From a virus: DNA of 64,000 bases. Both the position numbers and the translations under genes were made by a program. The DNA lies in IMG/VR virus record IMGVR_UViG_3300042691_019380, positions 1 to 64,000 of that record, one strand, 5' to 3'. Of this stretch, positions 4,721 to 60,700 are shown one piece after another. The first letter of the stretch is position 1. Each line of letters starts with the position of its first letter. The notes under the pieces were generated by a model that was not told where the DNA came from, made no database searches, and saw nothing but the letters and a program-made list of their open reading frames with translations.

Positions 4721-5068
4721 TCATCGCTTCGCCTCTGGCGGCTCGGGTAGCGGCATCCAGTGCGTCGGGTCGAGCATCGCCATCTCGTCGCCTACCCATC
4801 CGTCGGCGGCGTAATACGTCCCCATCTCTGGCTGGCGAAACGCCTTGTCGAACACCAAAACGCGGACGTTCTCTTCCGGCAGCCTCTCGCCCACCGGAAT
4901 CCATCGCTGGCAGTTGTTCTTCTCCTCCACGATGGCGTCGAGCAGTTCACGCGAGATGACCGTCCCGCGACACCCTTCGGGCCAGTGGATAACCACGCGG
5001 CCGGTCTTGTCCTCCGTGCAGGTCACGTTGTATTCGTAGCCGTATGGGAGGCGGGGGCTGTCGTTCAT
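4721..5068 (-). CDS. DUF551-family protein
   Basis: RWIPVGERLPE...THWMPLPEPP. Confidence 0.8.
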   Translation of the reverse strand: MNDSPRLPYGYEYNVTCTEDKTGRVVIHWPEGCRGTVISRELLDAIVEEKNNCQRWIPVGERLPEENVRVLVFDKAFRQPEMGTYYAADGWVGDEMAMLDPTHWMPLPEPPEAKR

Positions 5069-5376
5069 CACGTTGCCTCGTCGGGCGGAGAGGGCAGCGG
5101 TTGCCAGTGGGTAATGTTCCACAGTTTGCCTTCTTCGCTGAACCATTCGCCCGCCTTGACGTGTTCCGTGTCGCGGTCCCAGCGGTGGCAAACGAACACT
5201 CCAGGCCACCAATGGTCGCCTGCGTTTGAGGTTTGCCAGCCAAGCACTTCTTCGCCGTGTTCAGGCACACGCTCCTCGACCGAAATCCAGCGGGGCATCA
5301 ACTCGCTCACCGCCGCAATCGCGTCATCGCCACCCTGGCGGATGCGACGGTCAAAGTCTTTCATGTGGCTCATCAA
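5068..5376 (-). CDS. DUF551-family protein
   Basis: RWISVEERVPE...ITHWQPLPSPP. Confidence 0.8.
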   Translation of the reverse strand: MMSHMKDFDRRIRQGGDDAIAAVSELMPRWISVEERVPEHGEEVLGWQTSNAGDHWWPGVFVCHRWDRDTEHVKAGEWFSEEGKLWNITHWQPLPSPPDEAT

Positions 5377-5820: not shown

Positions 5821-6126
5821 TCACTCCTCCTTCACGAACACCCCTTCTGGCGTGAGATATCCACGCCTGTCCTTGATTGTCTGGTACGCCGAGTCCAGGC
5901 TGTCTCGCACAGACAAGCCGGAGAGTTTCGCGTAGATGATCAGAGTCACGAGAACGTCGCCGAGGCCGTCGACTTTCTCGGCCAGATCGTTCTTAAGCGT
6001 GGCGTCGGCCAGTTCGCCGAGTTCGCTCATGGTCTTCATCAGTTGAGCCTGCGGCGTGCTGTTGGGAACGATCTTGCGAGCAGCAGCCCAGCCTTCGACG
6101 GCGAGGATCAGTTCATCGAGAGTCAT
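5821..6126 (-). CDS. MazG-like nucleotide pyrophosphohydrolase
   Basis: QLMKTMSELGELA...DGLGDVLVTLII...AY..IKDRRG...GVFVKE. Confidence 0.88.
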   Translation of the reverse strand: MTLDELILAVEGWAAARKIVPNSTPQAQLMKTMSELGELADATLKNDLAEKVDGLGDVLVTLIIYAKLSGLSVRDSLDSAYQTIKDRRGYLTPEGVFVKEE

Positions 6127-6819: not shown

Positions 6820-7224
6820 CAGCACGACTCCGCGAAATCTTCTTTTTCAGAGAGCGATTGGCACTGCAACTCGTAGGCGTAGTTTGCGTACCACCGGGCT
6901 TGGTGCCGTGCCAACCACAACTCGTGCCGCAGCGTGTATTCAGGCAGCGGCACGCCGCAGACGAGTTGCCACTCCTCTGGCAGTCGCCATGTCAGACGGT
7001 CGTAGGCCCAGATGCTTAGGCTCACAAGCCAGCGGATGTTCGTTCGCGTGGCGGCGTCGTGGAACCGGTAGATAAGGGCGTTCCAGCGCCAGTTGAGGGC
7101 GTTTGCGATAGTTAGCATCTTTGATAATCCTCTTATGTTATCCAGCCGATAATCCGCGAAACCGCCTGGACGTTGTTGATTCCGCGACGGCGGCGGCGTG
7201 TTATGCGGAACCGTAGAAACACTG

Positions 7225-7526
7225 GTTCCACAACTACACGAACTCTCGCGGCGTCACAGCAATCATCTCATCCCAGAGAACGTCGCTTTTTACGCACGAA
7301 GCCACCGACTCAAGGACGACGAACTCCTGCCCAGTGCGCGACCGAGCAAGCCGCTCCGCCTCGCGCCGAGCCTCTTTCTCGGAGTCGTGACGGACAACCG
7401 GCTGCCCCATGGGACCAAGAACCATCCAAAACTTCTTTGTCATTGTGGAACCAGCGGATGCAGCGGACTCGCGATACCGTCTGCGGTGTAGTTTCGTCAG
7501 CGGTCGCGAGCCGCTGATCCTGCGTG
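7225..7526 (+). mobile_element. Integron-like gene cassette 1 (antisense ORF 7234-7443 plus attC-like site)
   Basis: Left boundary GTTCCACAA (7225-7233) is the exact reverse complement of TTGTGGAAC (7443-7451) at the start of the attC-like site. Confidence 0.65.
7234..7443 (-). CDS. Small hypothetical protein (cassette cargo)
   Basis: 69 aa, FW.V...P.VRH.S...A..EAERLA...F.VLE; fills the cassette exactly. Confidence 0.7.
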   Translation of the reverse strand: MTKKFWMVLGPMGQPVVRHDSEKEARREAERLARSRTGQEFVVLESVASCVKSDVLWDEMIAVTPREFV

Positions 7527-7532
7527 TTCTGC
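7445..7532 (+). mobile_element. attC-like recombination site 1
   Basis: GAAC-N-ATGCAGCGGACTCGCGA...TCGCGAGCCGCTGAT-N-GTTC; imperfect palindrome with two unpaired bases (G, A) on the left arm. Confidence 0.7.
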
Positions 7533-7781
7533 CTACCTTGAAGCCGCCGATGCGGCCTTGAGGAAATCCACGGTTGAGCGGTGCCGCTTCCGCTCTTGCT
7601 CAACCTGATCGGCAAGGTGTCCGACGACGGCCAGCAACTCGTCGCGACTAAGTTCCTGTATCGGCACCCCGAAAAACGTCATGCCTTGTGTCTTGCTAGA
7701 CCATTCCTGCGGAAACTTATGAACTGGCAGGCCCGAGCCAGAACCAGCCGATGCAACAGACCGCTCATTCGTATCGCTCAT
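7533..7781 (-). CDS. Small hypothetical protein (cassette 2 cargo; start lies inside attC-like site 2)
   Basis: SD GGAGG and ATG lie in the attC loop; N-terminus MSDTNERSVASAGS is encoded by the attC arm; stop abuts site 1. Confidence 0.65.
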   Translation of the reverse strand: MSDTNERSVASAGSGSGLPVHKFPQEWSSKTQGMTFFGVPIQELSRDELLAVVGHLADQVEQERKRHRSTVDFLKAASAASR

Positions 7782-7827
7782 GGTTGCCGCCTCCTTTGTT
7801 CGCGGCTGTTGATCCTGCGTGTTCTGT
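7738..7827 (+). mobile_element. attC-like recombination site 2
   Basis: CCAGAAC-CAGCCG-ATGCAACAGACCGC...GCGGCTGTTGAT-CCTGCGT-GTTCTGT; same architecture and same unpaired G and A as site 1. Confidence 0.7.
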
Positions 7828-7829
7828 GG

Positions 7830-8153
7830 TCATTTCGTCCGCTCCAGCAGGCCGCGAAGGGTGTCGGCGGCCTCCATATCCCATCTGGTGCATTCCACCG
7901 ACATATCCTGCACGCCCATCAGCGAGCAATATCCTCGCTCAATCGCCTCCCGCTCCGCGTCGGTTAACTTTGGAGTCGCATCCGCAGAAAACATCAGGTC
8001 GCATCGCGGGCAACTGACCGAAACGAGGCCGTTGCTGGCGGCAATCTCGCGCTTATCCCGCTCGTCCTGGCAAGCATCGCAGGATTGAAAAACCAACGGA
8101 GACGATTTGCCGTGCGGCTTCTCGCAGTAACAGCAGTTTGGGCTGCGTTTCAT
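7830..8153 (-). CDS. Cys-rich small protein with LTDAEREAI/TLRGLLER module
   Basis: CxxC pairs plus shared C-terminal module. Confidence 0.6.
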   Translation of the reverse strand: MKRSPNCCYCEKPHGKSSPLVFQSCDACQDERDKREIAASNGLVSVSCPRCDLMFSADATPKLTDAEREAIERGYCSLMGVQDMSVECTRWDMEAADTLRGLLERTK

Positions 8154-8340: not shown

Positions 8341-8655
8341 TCATCTCCCACCTCCCAGCCGCTCCAGCAGGCCGCGCAGGGTGGCGGCGTTTACTGACTC
8401 ACGGCCATCGCCAGCGCCGCGAACAGCATATGCGTCGGCCGCAGTGCGAATCGCCTCCCGCTCCGCGTCGGTGAGTGCAGTTGTTGCGTTTTCTGCAACA
8501 GCCTCGTCCAGCCAGTCAGCGGCGTTGGCGATGATGGACAGCATGTCCATCTGGCCGATTGGCCCATCGCCAATCGTCAATTCCTGAAGCAGCATTTGCC
8601 GCAGCAGCGAACCAGCCGACCGCCTCGTCGGGATGACTGGATGCTCTTCGCTCAT
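8341..8655 (-). CDS. Small protein with LTDAEREAI/TLRGLLER module
   Basis: Start at MSEEH; shared C-terminal module. Confidence 0.55.
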   Translation of the reverse strand: MSEEHPVIPTRRSAGSLLRQMLLQELTIGDGPIGQMDMLSIIANAADWLDEAVAENATTALTDAEREAIRTAADAYAVRGAGDGRESVNAATLRGLLERLGGGR

Positions 8656-9437
8656 TCCCCGCCTCCCAGCCGCTCCAGCAGGCCGCGAAGGGTTTCCTGT
8701 ACCGATACGCCATCGACTGATAGTGCGTCTCCTATGATCCACTGAATCGCCGTCCGCTCAGAGTCAGTGAGCGTGGGCGAGCGGTAGAGCGGGACGACGA
8801 AATAGCCCGGCCGCAATCCAACCAGAGCCCGCCTGTCTGCCTCCCTCTGTGCGCTGGCCTTGTCGGAAAACATCGCCACCGCGTAGTCGCCGTAATCGCC
8901 AGCCACAGCCCACGCCACCGGCTCCTGTGTACCCTCGCGCGGCACACTACCCTCGCCGGGTGTAGCGTGCGAGGCGGGTGTATGTACCGGCGTCTCCCAT
9001 ACGCGCGAGTCTGGATCGGGGCCGTTGATAGGCTGTGGCCTATCAGAAACGCAGTCGTTGATAGGCTTTGGTGTATCGCCGGTGCCTTCGCCGGGTCGGA
9101 TGGCCGCTTTATCAGTGCGGTTCCTGTCGGCGTGCGTTGTCGGTTGCGGTGCGACCGACTCAACGCTGGCTCTCGCCGCCGGCGCGGCGTCTAGATTCGT
9201 TCGCTCCCGCTTGCGGAGCATGGCGTCGGCAATATGGCTGCCCCGCTCGGGACATTTCGCATCCGATTCGCCACCGTCGATGGCGTTCTGTCCCGCTCGG
9301 GAACGCTCGTGGAGCATAGCGTCAGCCAGTTCGTATGCCATCAACGCAATTTCACTCCTGCCTGACGCCGACTCTGGCTCAATGTTCGCCAGCCCCGTCA
9401 GCGCCGCAGCGGCGAAGTAGTCGCGGTCAGTCATCAT
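8652..9437 (-). CDS. Mosaic phage protein (RDYFAAAAL + EPVAW + TLRGLLER modules)
   Basis: Recognisable short phage modules joined by a low-complexity linker. Confidence 0.55.
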   Translation of the reverse strand: MMTDRDYFAAAALTGLANIEPESASGRSEIALMAYELADAMLHERSRAGQNAIDGGESDAKCPERGSHIADAMLRKRERTNLDAAPAARASVESVAPQPTTHADRNRTDKAAIRPGEGTGDTPKPINDCVSDRPQPINGPDPDSRVWETPVHTPASHATPGEGSVPREGTQEPVAWAVAGDYGDYAVAMFSDKASAQREADRRALVGLRPGYFVVPLYRSPTLTDSERTAIQWIIGDALSVDGVSVQETLRGLLERLGGGE

Positions 9438-9781
9438 CGAGAAACCCTCACGAGAGCCTGCGGATACTCCAGGCACGCATCGAGATATGCCTTACACCAT
9501 TTCACGAAGCCGTCGTAGTCGCCCCAGCCGTTGCTGGGATTGAAAGCCTTGTAGTGGTCCGGTCGGAGCCTCATGTCGTCGAGGCCCACAGATAGACGTC
9601 CGGCTACCTGGGCGGCTGTCGTGATCCCATGCTCGTCTGGCCGCCACAGGCACTCGTAGACGCCAGCCTCAGACGCCATCACGTTGAGGTTGTGTGTGAC
9701 GTTGGCCGTGAAAACGACATGCTCGTCTGGCTCGTCGTGGCCGACATCGACATCAAAGTACAGATACACGTCGAGGCTCAT
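9434..9781 (-). CDS. Conserved phage hypothetical protein
   Basis: MSLDVYL..N.THNL..MA.EAG...P.NGWG.Y. Confidence 0.7.
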   Translation of the reverse strand: MSLDVYLYFDVDVGHDEPDEHVVFTANVTHNLNVMASEAGVYECLWRPDEHGITTAAQVAGRLSVGLDDMRLRPDHYKAFNPSNGWGDYDGFVKWCKAYLDACLEYPQALVRVSR

Positions 9782-42921: not shown

Positions 42922-43743
42922 TCATGGGGTCACCGTGTCCGTACAAGGGATCACGACTCCACACTGCTCACAGAGTTTGGCGACCTCGGCTGCAAGTTCT
43001 TCCGGAGTGTGCGAGCCGCAGCGTCGTGCTTCGCTCGTCGCGACGCAGCCCTCGTCGACTGCCAGGGCAGCCGGGAAGCAGTTGCCCGGAAGGAACCCAA
43101 ACCGCTCTTGATGCGACCAGAACAGCCGACGCAGGCTGGCGTTGTGGCAGAAAACGAACGCCAGACGGTCAACGTCGACCGGCTGGTTCGCAGCCTTGAC
43201 CAGCACCTCGACCTGATGCTGCACAGCCGCCCCCGACTGCCGCGACGTTCCCTTGCAGGCCCACAGTTCCACCCGCAGCCCCAGGCTCTCCAGAACGTCG
43301 ACCGCCGCGAGGACAACGGCACCACGAGCGAAGATCGCCTCGGCCTTCACGCCTGCACTCACGGCGAGATTCACGAACAGCCGCACGACACGCTGCGATC
43401 CGAACCTGCCGACTTCGTACTCGCTGTACGATCCGCAAGCCTCGGGCTCGCCCGACAAGACTCGGCCGACGTCAACGAAGTCTCCGGTGACGTCCCAGGC
43501 AAACTGCTGGCATGCTGCGGTCTTCGATGCCTCGACGCACCGATCGAGGCTCGCCCGAATCTCGGCGACGCGAGCGGCCCCCTCGGCCCAGCCGGTCTGA
43601 GCCAGATACACAGCCTCGCCGAACGTGCTGGTCCCAGAGAAGCCCACACGTCCGACCGTGCGGCTGCTCGTGCCCTTGCCCTGCGGCACCTTGCGGACGT
43701 CTTCGAGGAAGGATTCGTAATCGTGAAATGCGTGGCGAGCCAT
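42922..43743 (-). CDS. vWA-like AAA partner, paralogue 3 (DUF7192-like)
   Basis: GW.EG, WDVTGDF.DVGRVLSGEPE, D.LE..G.RVE, VK, DR.AF, LRRL. Confidence 0.75.
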   Translation of the reverse strand: MARHAFHDYESFLEDVRKVPQGKGTSSRTVGRVGFSGTSTFGEAVYLAQTGWAEGAARVAEIRASLDRCVEASKTAACQQFAWDVTGDFVDVGRVLSGEPEACGSYSEYEVGRFGSQRVVRLFVNLAVSAGVKAEAIFARGAVVLAAVDVLESLGLRVELWACKGTSRQSGAAVQHQVEVLVKAANQPVDVDRLAFVFCHNASLRRLFWSHQERFGFLPGNCFPAALAVDEGCVATSEARRCGSHTPEELAAEVAKLCEQCGVVIPCTDTVTP

Positions 43744-51056: not shown

Positions 51057-51923
51057 ATGACTCTCAACAAGTTTTTTGAAGACTTCTACCAGCCTCTCAA
51101 GTTGCGGGGCCGCAGCGAAAATACGACGCGGCTGTACGCCAACACTCTCAAGCAGTACGCCAAGTATCTCGGCAGACCGGCGACGATCGAGGAAGACCTG
51201 AACGACCTCGCCGTCTCGCGATACCTCTCGCATCGAGCGAGAGAACGGAGCGTCTACACGGCCGAGAAAGAGCGGACGCAGTTGCTGGCTCTCTGGAGGT
51301 GCGCGGCTGACCGCAGGCTGACCGAGATGCGGCCCTGCGTTCCGCCGACTCCCATCCCGTTTCGAGTGCCGACGGCATGGAGCGTCGACCAACTGAAGGC
51401 CCTGCTCGCGGCGGCCAAAGTCGTGAAAGGGAAAGTCGGAGACGTTCCGGCTCACATCTTCTGGACCGCACTTATTCAAGTCCTCTGGCAGAGCGCCGAA
51501 CGCATCGGCGCGATCATGTCCGTGCTAAAAGAGGACTACACGAGGCCGATCATCCTCGTCCGCGCCGAGTACCGAAAGGGCGGGAAGCGAGACAAACTCT
51601 ACACGTTCACAGACCCAGTCTGCGATCTGCTTGACGTGCTGAAGCAGTCCAGCAACGGCCCGCAACTCTTCGCGTGGCCGAGAGGGTACGAGTACCTGTG
51701 GAACCGATTCGGCAAGATCGTGAAGGCGGCTGGTCTTGAAGGCGGACGCCGCAGCAAGTTTCACCAACTGAGAAGATCAGCCGCCACGCACTTCGCGGCG
51801 AGAGGCGGCGATCCGACGGCGTTGCTGGATCACAGTTCACCGCGAATCACGAAGGCTTACCTCGACCCGAGGTTCATCGACACTGGTCCCAAGCCTTGCG
51901 AAGTCTTGCCTGGGCTAGACTGA
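51057..51923 (+). CDS. int: Tyrosine recombinase/integrase
   Basis: R (AERIGA), K (KGGK), HQLRR, LDHS, catalytic Y (AYLD); SD GGAG. Confidence 0.92.
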   Translation: MTLNKFFEDFYQPLKLRGRSENTTRLYANTLKQYAKYLGRPATIEEDLNDLAVSRYLSHRARERSVYTAEKERTQLLALWRCAADRRLTEMRPCVPPTPIPFRVPTAWSVDQLKALLAAAKVVKGKVGDVPAHIFWTALIQVLWQSAERIGAIMSVLKEDYTRPIILVRAEYRKGGKRDKLYTFTDPVCDLLDVLKQSSNGPQLFAWPRGYEYLWNRFGKIVKAAGLEGGRRSKFHQLRRSAATHFAARGGDPTALLDHSSPRITKAYLDPRFIDTGPKPCEVLPGLD

Positions 51924-57700: not shown

Positions 57701-60700
57701 GCGGTTAGGCCCTTGCCTTCAGCGACCCCAACGGTTTGAAACAAACTGTCGCTCTCTCCAGAGACGTCAAAGAACAACCTCCCGTCCGTTGTTTCGCCAA
57801 TGCGGTCTCTAGTGACCTTGCTCCACGCATCGTATTCGGAGACTTTTGCCGGGCCGAAACCGCCATGGAGGAGTTTCGGCGGCAACTTTTCGTAAGTCGC
57901 GTGAGACTTTCCAGAGAACTGCGGCCACGAGTCGACGAATCTATACCAAGAAAAGTACTCTCTCGCCTGGAGCGGGCCTTGCGCAATCGTCGCCGTAGCG
58001 GTCGCACCGCTTCCGCCTCCGCCGGAAATGGTGACGGTGGGCGCGCCGTCGAACCAGCCGCCCGCGTTCATCACCTGAATGCCAATAACTTGCCCGTTCT
58101 TGATTCGAGCGTAGGCAGTAGCCCCTCCAGGCGAGAACGAAACAGTCGGCGGAGAGGTGTACCCAGAGCCTCCGTTTGTGACTTGCACTCCAGTGACTTG
58201 CCCAGGGACTTGCACATGCGGAGGAATGACAGGCCAAGCAAGCGGGTCTACTGCGCCAGGGTAGCCGCCCACGGGGTAGATGAAGTAACGCGCGTCATAC
58301 GCCGGGGCTAATTGGTTGACCTCAGCAGGGGCAACGACAGACCCGGCCCAAACGTCAAGACCAGGACTGTAGGAAGAGTAATAATCATCAGTGACAGTGC
58401 CCTGCGAGTGTATCGTGTCCTGATTTGCGACGCGATTCTCGCCGTTGACCAACGTCGTTGTTTCTGTTCTTTTAACTATGTACCACTTATAAACAAACGG
58501 GGACCATTCACCCTTGGCGTCGTGTGGGTTCCCGCTCTTGCCGTCTTCAAGGCGATAGCGAATGGGCGACATATTATCACCATAAATATGTGGCGACCCG
58601 TTCCATCCATCATGCTCCGCCGCTTGCTGCACAGACTGAGCAGGCGGGTGCGTGCTGGACTCGTAAAGAAACAGCCTGTCTTTCGGCTGGAATCCGTCGC
58701 CGTGAAAAGCAGCCTGCGAGTTGAGTCTCCACAAAACACCAGACGTGTCGATTGCGAGAGCGATTGACCCTGCCGCCACAACTGACTGGCACGCATCAGG
58801 GCCGTCGAGGTGTGCGGTGAGCGTGTATCCGGCGCCGCCTGCGGGGAAGAGTTCTGGAACTTCGGTGTAGCCGTGCCCTGCCGACATGGTGATGTAAATA
58901 GGGCCTTCGTACTTGGCAGGGGTGGGAGGGAGTACCACACCTCCTGACGGGCCGCTTTCGTCAGAAGACGCCCAGCCGGACAGGTACGGAGTCTTCTCTT
59001 GCCTGAACGAGTTTCCGACAGACGCAGGAATGCCGCCCTCGTTCGACGGTGGCTCGACCCAGACACCAAACACAGGGCCAACCTCATCTGACGTCGCCTC
59101 TGCCGTGACATATGCTCTCTTGCCAACTCTCGTTGGTCTCTTGATGACTTCTTGATACTTATCGAAAGGCCACTGAAAAGACCTGGGCCATTCAAACAGC
59201 CCCGGTATCACGCCCCACCAGTACGGCAGATCACTGCTGTCGGTCGCGAGAGAGTAGTTCAATCCAGCAGACACAGTCTTCCAAGTGCGGCCAAGGCCAA
59301 CTTGAATCGGCCTGCGGAACACGTTTCTGTGGTCATAAGAACTACCAACGCCGTCGATCTCGACGATCGGCTCAGTTGCGTAGAAGTCTCCGCTGTTTGT
59401 CAGCGTCGCGGAGTCGATCCACCCAGACGCTGTCGAGACTGTTCCAGACGCGCCGCTTCCTGTTTCGGACAAGAACTCAAGGTTCCAGACTGGCGGCGGA
59501 GAAGGTGGGCCGTCAAACGGGGCTCGCCCCGCTATAAGCCCGCCGGGCATGTTGCCTCTTATGACAAACGGAGCCGACTCCCAGCCGAGCGAGTCTTGCG
59601 TCAGCGGGAGAGGCTCTTGCCTGTCGCCGAGAACGATGTAGGTGGGATTGTAGTCGATCATCCACTGGCCCATCGGCACGCGGCCAGTGCCCTGCGGGGC
59701 AAACGGCGCGGGCTCGGGCGGCGGCTTAGGTTTCCAGTCGTCGCTGACCACAAGCGACTGAACTGGCCCTGGAGAGATGCTGCAAATGAAACTTGCGTCT
59801 GGTCCCTGAAACTCATCTTCAGGATCGCGAGTGAATTGCACGAACGGGGCTCGCCTGAGAAAGCCAGCCTCGCTGCGGGTGTATCCGTCTCCGGGCACCG
59901 TAATCGTAACCGCCTCGACGACTCCTTCGGCCTTCGCGGTTGCTGCGGCTCCTGTTCCGCCTCCGCCTGAAAAAACGACCACAGGACGCTCTCGGTAGCC
60001 GTTTCCCTGCTGGTTCCAGGGAGCATTAGCGCCGATCGCCACGACCGATCCGTCTCCGTACTTTGCAACGGCAGTTGCGCCAGAGCCTGGGCCGGAAAAC
60101 GAAACAGGAAAGTCCACCCCAGAGCCACCCTGCACGTACGAGCCTGTTGGCTGGACTGATACTCTGAGAACATGATTGAGCCGCAGCACGGCCTGAGCCG
60201 TCGCACCAGAGCCGCCGCCGCCAGAGAAGCCAATTGCGACCGCTTCGGCGTCGACCTTCAAGTCCGGAGCAACGTCTACTCGCACGACAGCACCGTTTTG
60301 GACGACTGCCGACAGGCTGGCCGATGGCTGGCCGTCGATGGTCACCGTCGGCGGAGACGAGTATCCGCTGCCAGGGGCCGTGACGTTAATGCTCTCGACT
60401 ATGCAGCCCATCTTGGACACGGTCGCCGTGGCTGTTGGGCCTACAGAAGTCACGGACGGGCGGGACGTGTACCCAGAGCCGCCGTTGGTGACTCTAATCT
60501 CAACGACCCTGAATCTGGCGACGGGAGTCAGAGTGACTTTGCCAGCCCCAATCGACTCGACGGAAACCATCCTGGCGTCCGCGTAAGCACCAAGGCCGCC
60601 GCTGTTTGGCGCAAAGGACACCGCCGGAGGCTCCTTGTAGCCTGCCCCTCCAGAAGTGACTGTAATCTCCTGAATGCCGTCGCCTTCGATCGTGACTGTC

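Follow-up and report, generated by a model that had tools for sequence, protein, structure and literature searches.

The stretch of DNA analysed here, called the window, comprises the first 64 kb of the IMG/VR virus record of an uncultured phage; the record is 92,855 bp long and has direct terminal repeats. Between about 5 and 10 kb, the plausible genes of the window lie on the minus strand throughout. Two short open reading frames (ORFs) of this region are each associated with an imperfect palindrome, and an earlier note on this DNA had read the palindromes as attC recombination sites of an integron-like cassette array. The features that bear on this reading are as follows, site scores being those of R1, a covariance model built from phage sites only:

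5068-5376, minus strand: DUF551 protein (Pfam), just downstream of the array
5821-6126, minus strand: MazG-type pyrophosphohydrolase (Pfam), just downstream of the array
7139-7204, minus strand: possible decayed attC before a 99-aa ORF, low confidence, below the model threshold
7207-7233, minus strand: vestigial site of which only the R-box hairpin is left (GGAACC, 11 nt, GGTTCC), a reading of the sequence, below model detection
7226-7526, minus strand: cassette A, site 1 plus the 69-aa ORF (7234-7443, minus)
7448-7529, minus strand: attC-type site 1 (70.8 bits, E 1.8e-20)
7527-7821, minus strand: cassette B, site 2 plus the 82-aa ORF (7533-7781), bounded between G and TT on the plus strand and between A and C on the minus strand
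7741-7824, minus strand: attC-type site 2 (82.8 bits, E 2e-24)
7830-8153, minus strand: upstream 107-aa gene, which ends with its stop codon directly against the site 2 R box (TGA-CCACAG-AAC)
51057-51923, plus strand: Xer-like tyrosine recombinase of 288 aa (PF00589, 37.4 bits), 43 kb from the array

The two cassette proteins and their neighbours have no Pfam match apart from the nearby MazG and DUF551 genes, the 69-aa protein has no relatives in IMG/VR, and 5 kb compared by blastn with the GenBank phage collection gave no match. When metagenomes were scanned for the junction upstream of site 2, the matches came from other phages, and no near-identical relative was found. DUF551-like C-termini (...THWMPLP...) recur at the cassette ends of related phages. 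The three adjacent minus-strand genes at 7830-8153, 8341-8742, and 8652-9476, which are without attC sites, have a C-terminal module in common (L-T-D-x-E-R-x-A-I ... T-L-R-G-L-L-E-R) that gave no Pfam match. Its closing motif, L-[LV]-x-R, also terminates 24 of 121 cassette proteins in relatives, and one mosaic breakpoint (L031 vs L056) falls inside a module that closes in this way.

Architecture of the Two Sites and Their Cassettes

The palindromes lie where the earlier note had placed them (7445-7532 and 7738-7827) and have both arms in common; the 14-mer GATCCTGCGTGTTC is present in exactly two copies in the window and two in the whole genome. On the minus strand, both sites consist of GAAC, a 6-nt spacer, GATCA-NNNG-C, a loop, G-[T]-C-NNN-TG-[C]-ATC, a 4-nt spacer, and GTTC, the bracketed bases being unpaired. 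Written out for site 2, the order is GAAC, spacer, GATCAACAGCC, loop, GGTCTGTTGCATC, spacer, and GTTC. The two unpaired left-arm bases per site described from the plus strand are seen in both folds and correspond to the bulged T and C of the minus strand. Site 1 is a long non-coding hairpin of a class also found at seven other loci (L017, L032, L038, L058, L064, L080, and L084). Folded as DNA, it reaches a dG of -27.9 kcal/mol with z = -5.1 on the plus strand, where none of 200 shuffles was as good, and the proposed folding of the bottom (minus) strand gave a hairpin with extrahelical bases at z = -5.7. In site 2, the same outer stem encloses a large open loop, and for this reason site 2 has a z of only -0.7. 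This loop contains AAGGAGG, an ATG, and nine codons of the 82-aa ORF, and the 3′ arm of the site translates as S-V-A-S-A-G-S. The 82-aa ORF is not confined to the space between the sites: its ribosome-binding site, ATG, and first 14 codons are all within site 2.

The flanks of cassette A, GTTCCACAA (7225-7233) and TTGTGGAAC (7445-7453, the start of site 1), are complementary at 9/9 positions, and the 69-aa ORF occupies the gap between them, both as first observed; the AAC that closes this cassette is provided by the vestigial site at 7207-7233. For cassette B, the match turned out to be better than claimed, with GTTCTGCCT and AGCCAGAAC complementary at 8/9 positions. These flanks (CTGGCT / AGGCAG-AAC) reach 9/9 in the homologous cassettes of L090 and L068. 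The possible decayed site upstream of the 99-aa ORF reads ATAAC-ACGCCG ... GATTATCGGCTGGATAAC on the minus strand and resembles the arms. Across the window, only sites 1 and 2 score highly with R1, the next match having 15 bits. Weak matches at 43156-43189 (plus, 15.1 bits) and 58051-58069 (minus, 13.8 bits) keep GAACGC ... GGCTGGTTC without the L box and may be relic sites or chance matches.

A Family of Sites in Phages

When the 82-aa protein was used as a query, loci were found that match at residues 1-14 only, which is the part encoded by the site, and the exact 3′ arm is present in 89 IMG/VR stretches. In an alignment of 47 diverse seed sites (A1), 95.8% of cells pair as in the proposed structure, and compensatory changes occur in 7 of the 14 inner pairs, for example from CAGCGG/CCGCTG to CAACAG/CTGTTG, CACCAG/CTGGTG, or GATG/CATC. 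The support observed was reached by none of 500 shuffles, and no slid register came close. R1 gave 265 matches at 80 IMG/VR phage loci, on a single strand per locus and at a spacing of 150-500 nt. The largest arrays have about 14 sites (L056), 10 (L028 and L055), and 9 (L008).

Across 136 distinct sites, AAC is invariant but for two departures at the second A, and GTT is nearly so, with 2 or 3 departures or gaps. The bulged T and the bulged C are each present in 133 of the 136, 7 nt apart in the 3′ arm of the minus (coding) strand and opposite AAC. The spacer is variable and unpaired, with 5 or 6 bases on the 5′ side and four on the 3′ side; the loop measures 0-80 nt and the whole site 43-85 nt. 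Wobble pairs favour the coding strand (16 G-T vs 5 A-C), and compact non-coding sites retain the stem and the bulges. Phage sites depart from the R-box consensus RYYYAAC / GTTRRRY, those of the window being GCAG-AAC and ACAG-AAC on the bottom strand and GTT-CCAC and GTT-CTGG on the other arm. Their sequence conservation is far above the norm for attC sites, which could reflect a second function in RNA or translation. A search of Rfam at a permissive threshold gave chance matches only, and no promoter-like site or T-run terminator was found in or beside the sites.

The closest relative of the window phage is the 97,385-bp phage G001 (L056), whose recombinase is 92% identical to that of the window. 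Its array of about 14 sites lies directly before the same MazG gene that follows the two sites and relics of the window, so the two-cassette array is the short version of a hyperplastic region. The two genomes differ by about 4.5 kb, which is about the length of the L056 array. Many IMG/VR contigs start or stop within a site or array (L010, L030, L036, L058, L068, L074, and L086). Site repeats probably break metagenome assemblies, and array sizes are therefore likely to be underestimated. Two irregular arrangements were also seen: at L251 (about position 1412, minus), an internal deletion fuses the 5′ L box directly to ATCGGCTGGTTC, and in L247 the same upstream gene end and site are present twice, followed by different gene bodies.

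Cassette Flanks and Breakpoints

An integron cassette begins with bases complementary to the inverse core of its own attC, because the crossover lies between G and TT of the GTT triplet. For the phage arrays, the bases after GTT of one site were compared with those before AAC of the next in 105 distinct short cassettes. The mean complementary run was 4.75, against 1.78 after permutation, and a run of at least 5 was found in 67 of the 105 cassettes, where 9.6 were expected and the maximum in 5000 permutations was 21. The base that follows GTT (C or A) changes in step with the one that precedes AAC (G or T), and the rare flank types CTACGAC, CGCCGAC, and AGCCTGC match their partners. Complementarity between the two flanks of one and the same site was considered and rejected, the run of 1.88 being no better than random.

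Comparison of related phages located the cassette boundaries themselves. Fifteen homologous pairs of gene bodies sit in differing contexts, and in all five pairs inspected base by base, homology stops right after the AAC of the downstream site; one of these pairs is 100% identical over about 285 nt and breaks at AAC. Three metagenome contigs (L246, L247, and L253) have a common upstream gene and diverge after a shared AAC-spacer-L box. The upstream site is the better conserved partner in 11 of the 15 pairs. L028 and L069 have gene bodies that are 100% identical and upstream sites that differ, and related gene bodies also occur behind different classes of site. Thus, a single crossover between A and C cannot account for all of the mosaicism. 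The differing upstream sites may have arisen because both strands recombine, with a second, top-strand boundary between G and TT, or through gene conversion among the sites of an array.

Relation to Planctomycetota Integrons

An exact-pattern scan of GTDB genomes gave mostly chance matches, with true sites only in L156, L110, and L160. Among the GTDB hits, two Planctomycetota MAGs with weaker R1 matches (G023 and G024) both carry IntI, a frameshifted copy in G023 and one scoring 468 bits with TIGR02249 (cut-off 265) in G024. The G024 intI is preceded, at a distance of about 520 bp, by an attC (R1 41.3 bits, E 3e-11) that combines the canonical R box GTCTAAC ... GTTAGAC with exactly the L box and bulges of the phage sites. 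In a third Planctomycetota MAG (G037), there are two intI genes, and beside each of them lies an array of R1 matches (G037:C8:39931-61097 and G037:C22:66946-70044) whose attC sites are about 86 nt long; one of these arrays holds at least 17 matches over 18 kb. The intI-adjacent matches at L232:120-173, G037:C8, and G037:C22 each lie beside a TIGR02249 match above cut-off, and R1 E values at attC sites beside bona fide intI range from 1e-9 to 1e-11. In a sample of genomes, R1 matches were found in 22 of 151 from Planctomycetota and in 4 of 151 from a control phylum, one of the four being the seed.

Since R1 matches lie beside Planctomycetota intI genes, the phage sites are, as far as sequence and predicted structure can tell, members of the Planctomycetota attC family. 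By the same token, and on the strength of the site family only, Planctomycetota is the likely host phylum of these phages.

The likeness is close at the L box, where the phage sites (GATCAGCGGC / GTCCGCTGCATC) are identical to Planctomycetota attC sites such as the one beside the IntI at L232:695-1726, and it extends to the bulged T and C, the AAC/GTT ends, the unpaired spacer, the variable loop, and the complementary cassette flanks. The phage sites differ in that their R box is not RYYYAAC and their loop often encodes a ribosome-binding site, start codon, and leader. In addition, the phage is without intI, attI, and Pc, and its cassette genes lie on the bottom strand, whereas those of Planctomycetota integrons are on the top strand.

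Polarity, Translated Leader, and Cargo

In the three intI-adjacent arrays, the R1 matches are on the sense strand of intI and 5′ of it, which is the bottom strand, and the chromosomal cassette ORFs lie on the strand opposite to the matches. Phage cassette genes run with the orientation of the model and are thus on the attC bottom strand. Because the length of open frames is uninformative at this GC content, it was discarded as a guide to orientation and a start-to-stop frame test was used instead. Together, the intI-adjacent arrays and the phage start-to-stop frames bear out the early claim that the ORFs are opposite to normal cassette polarity.

An in-frame ATG lies within the loop at 125 of 184 distinct sites. 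A Shine-Dalgarno-like 4-mer was found in 63 of the 69 cassettes behind a loop-ATG site, and in 61 of the 69 the frame from the loop ATG is open through GGT-TCN and across the cassette, its stop lying -2 to +7 nt from the next AAC. The leader of about 15 residues closes with ...S-x-A-S-A-G-S, a stretch that the 3′ arm encodes. With the crossover placed after the stop codon of the upstream gene and before the attC, each cassette amounts to a self-contained unit of translation. The cargo in relatives includes C5, N6/N4, and MT-A70 DNA methyltransferases as well as HNH proteins, and the Pfam DNA-methylase domains start at residue 17-19, directly behind the leader. Orphan DNA methyltransferases are typically anti-restriction genes.

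Candidate Recombinases

No IntI-like gene adjoins the array, as previously noted, and TIGR02249 finds none in the whole 92.8-kb genome even at E 10. The phage therefore has no intI with adjacent attI and Pc, the arrangement by which a complete integron is recognized; with two sites spaced 211 bp apart and no intI, it fits the description of an integrase-less cassette array (CALIN), in which two or more attC sites lie close to one another. The gene at 51057-51923 encodes the only site-specific recombinase found in the phage genome. It is not an IntI; it scores far below the cut-offs of the XerA and XerD models, has no match to TIGR02249, and is about 23-25% identical to a real IntI. Homologues occur on 16 of the 22 contigs that bear arrays, in no case next to the array, and two contigs that are at least 90% complete have none. 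Neither a Y1 transposase nor a serine recombinase was found in the phage genome, so that an HUH (Y1) transposase or a serine recombinase was set aside as the catalyst. A host IntI is the somewhat favoured candidate, with odds a little better than even, and catalysis by the phage Xer-like recombinase is rather unlikely. The catalyst may also be something other than either of these enzymes.

Interpretation and Alternative Explanations

The explanation considered best, with a probability of roughly 0.75, is that both sites are attC recombination sites of the Planctomycetota chromosomal-integron family and stand in an integrase-less cassette array. It draws on the architecture, the flank rule, the AAC breakpoints, and the R1 matches beside Planctomycetota intI, all of which support the attC interpretation first proposed for this locus; that the window has only two intact sites counts against it. 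According to this explanation, the two sites and two relics would make up a small CALIN among the early, minus-strand genes of the phage, and a cassette would be one small gene preceded, in the sense of the gene, by its attC. The minus (coding) strand would present the geometry of an attC bottom strand, with 5′-AAC on one arm and the extrahelical T and C on the other, and exchange would take place between A and C of the AAC triplet. If so, the first bases of a cassette after GTT should complement its last bases before the next AAC. Phage genes are inverted relative to those of bacterial integrons, and the hairpin loop would have been taken over as a translation-initiation module with a Shine-Dalgarno sequence, an ATG, and a leader of about 15 residues. 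The reaction would be recombination of a single-strand hairpin, and we infer that it is still operating.

Another possibility is that the hairpins derive from attC sites and now serve mainly as standard modules of translation initiation or RNA structure, each presenting a Shine-Dalgarno sequence and an AUG from its loop and supplying a leader. The cassettes would then be reassorted with no integrase, through homologous recombination or by template switching where the arms are conserved. The frequency of in-frame loop ATGs and Shine-Dalgarno-like motifs, the wobble bias towards the coding strand, and the very high conservation of the arms all fit such a role. Loops and leaders have been exchanged between otherwise identical arms (L056 vs L066), sites differ next to identical gene bodies, and internal crossovers occur at a conserved coding motif (L031 vs L056), as this alternative would have it. 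However, homologous recombination does not explain exact AAC breakpoints where downstream identity is only 4-9 nt, nor the complementary flanks specific to each cassette, and stem and bulges are kept in compact sites that encode nothing. This alternative is regarded as unlikely.

A far smaller probability is given to phage-specific regulatory hairpins unrelated to integrons, be they substrates of RNase III-type processing, start-associated repeats as in Cluster K mycobacteriophages, or PeSL-type promoter/terminator cassettes. The sites do lie where genes adjoin, all oriented along the direction of transcription, start-associated inverted repeats whose function is unknown occur in phages (PMC3203893), and genes of T4-type phages are shuffled by PeSL motifs (PMC2839356). 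Yet the phage model recovers attC sites beside bona fide intI at E values down to 1e-11, the sites are without a promoter or terminator pattern, Rfam gives no match, and neither the flank rule nor AAC breakpoints would be expected of RNA elements, so that this explanation is largely refuted. Least probable are small transposon-like units with the site arms as terminal inverted repeats moved by a transposase. Gene bodies do lie between inverted copies of the arms with 4-8 complementary bases, but the similarity of shared cassettes ends at GTT and AAC, which leaves the arms outside the conserved unit, and for this reason the explanation was dropped; moreover, the ORFs are never inverted, and the absence of Y1 transposase and serine recombinase genes again applies.

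Beyond the attC reading itself, a broader proposal is that Planctomycetota phages run an inverted integron that combines translated-start attC sites, mutually silent cassette pools, and a hijacked recombinase. Any cassette plugged in would be expressed as an in-frame leader fusion from phage transcripts, and because of the opposite polarity, phage cassettes would stay silent in host arrays and host cassettes in phage arrays. During infection, the host IntI or the conserved phage Xer-like enzyme would be hijacked and would reshuffle anti-restriction and other early genes. As a joint claim, this proposal is tentative and falls somewhat short of an even chance.

Comparison With Known Systems

In PMC5027507, the 5′-AAC-3′ triplet is described as the only conserved stretch of attC, with bottom-strand cleavage between A and C. 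The central spacer that separates the R and L boxes is there unpaired, the terminal structure is variable, and 2-3 extrahelical bases lie on the arm opposite AAC; in attCaadA7 these bases are at positions 16 and 23. The phage bulges would fall at positions 16 and 23 as well if counted inward from the 7-nt R box, which is assumed to be the origin of the numbering in that source.

CALINs in phages with methyltransferase cargo, and their recombination by IntI1, are already known. Using IntegronFinder, Qi et al. (2023; PMC9892861) found 17 isolated CALINs in phages, and a host-type IntI1 recombined 5 of the 6 phage attC sites tested. The arrays described here resemble these in having attC sites without intI and orphan DNA methyltransferases among their cargo. 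They differ in comprising one conserved site family, which is spread over about 80 contigs of uncultured phages and has about 14 sites in its largest array, in their uniformly inverted polarity, and in the translation of their attC sites.

Two other kinds of phage repeat invite comparison. PeSL motifs of T4-type phages are promoter-terminator units said to mediate modular shuffling, and like the present sites they flank small accessory ORFs in hyperplastic regions (PMC2839356; PMC4122927). In contrast to PeSL, the sites described here have no early promoter or terminator stem-loop, and their breakpoints fall at one triplet. The SAS/ESAS elements of Cluster K mycobacteriophages, a 13-bp motif with 17-bp inverted repeats of unknown function, are likewise conserved and inverted repeats, which keep one orientation and accompany the sites where translation of non-structural genes begins; neither a cassette signature nor homology to integrons is described for these elements (PMC3203893).

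Implications for Phage Biology

What appears to be new is the size and coherence of the phage family, its uniform inversion, the translated attC with an embedded start, and the tie to the integrons of one host phylum. Integrons have been treated as bacterial devices, and attC clusters in phages have been known only as scattered cases. As far as could be found in the literature, this is the first case of a translated attC hairpin, one that provides the cassette protein with its start. The compact, sequence-defined hairpins could also be used to test strand choice by integron integrases. If the attC reading is correct, a single conserved attC family would organize the variable early-gene region of many uncultured phages and predict their host phylum, and it would provide a concrete site-specific mechanism for the mosaicism of phage accessory genes, including orphan DNA methyltransferase cargo.
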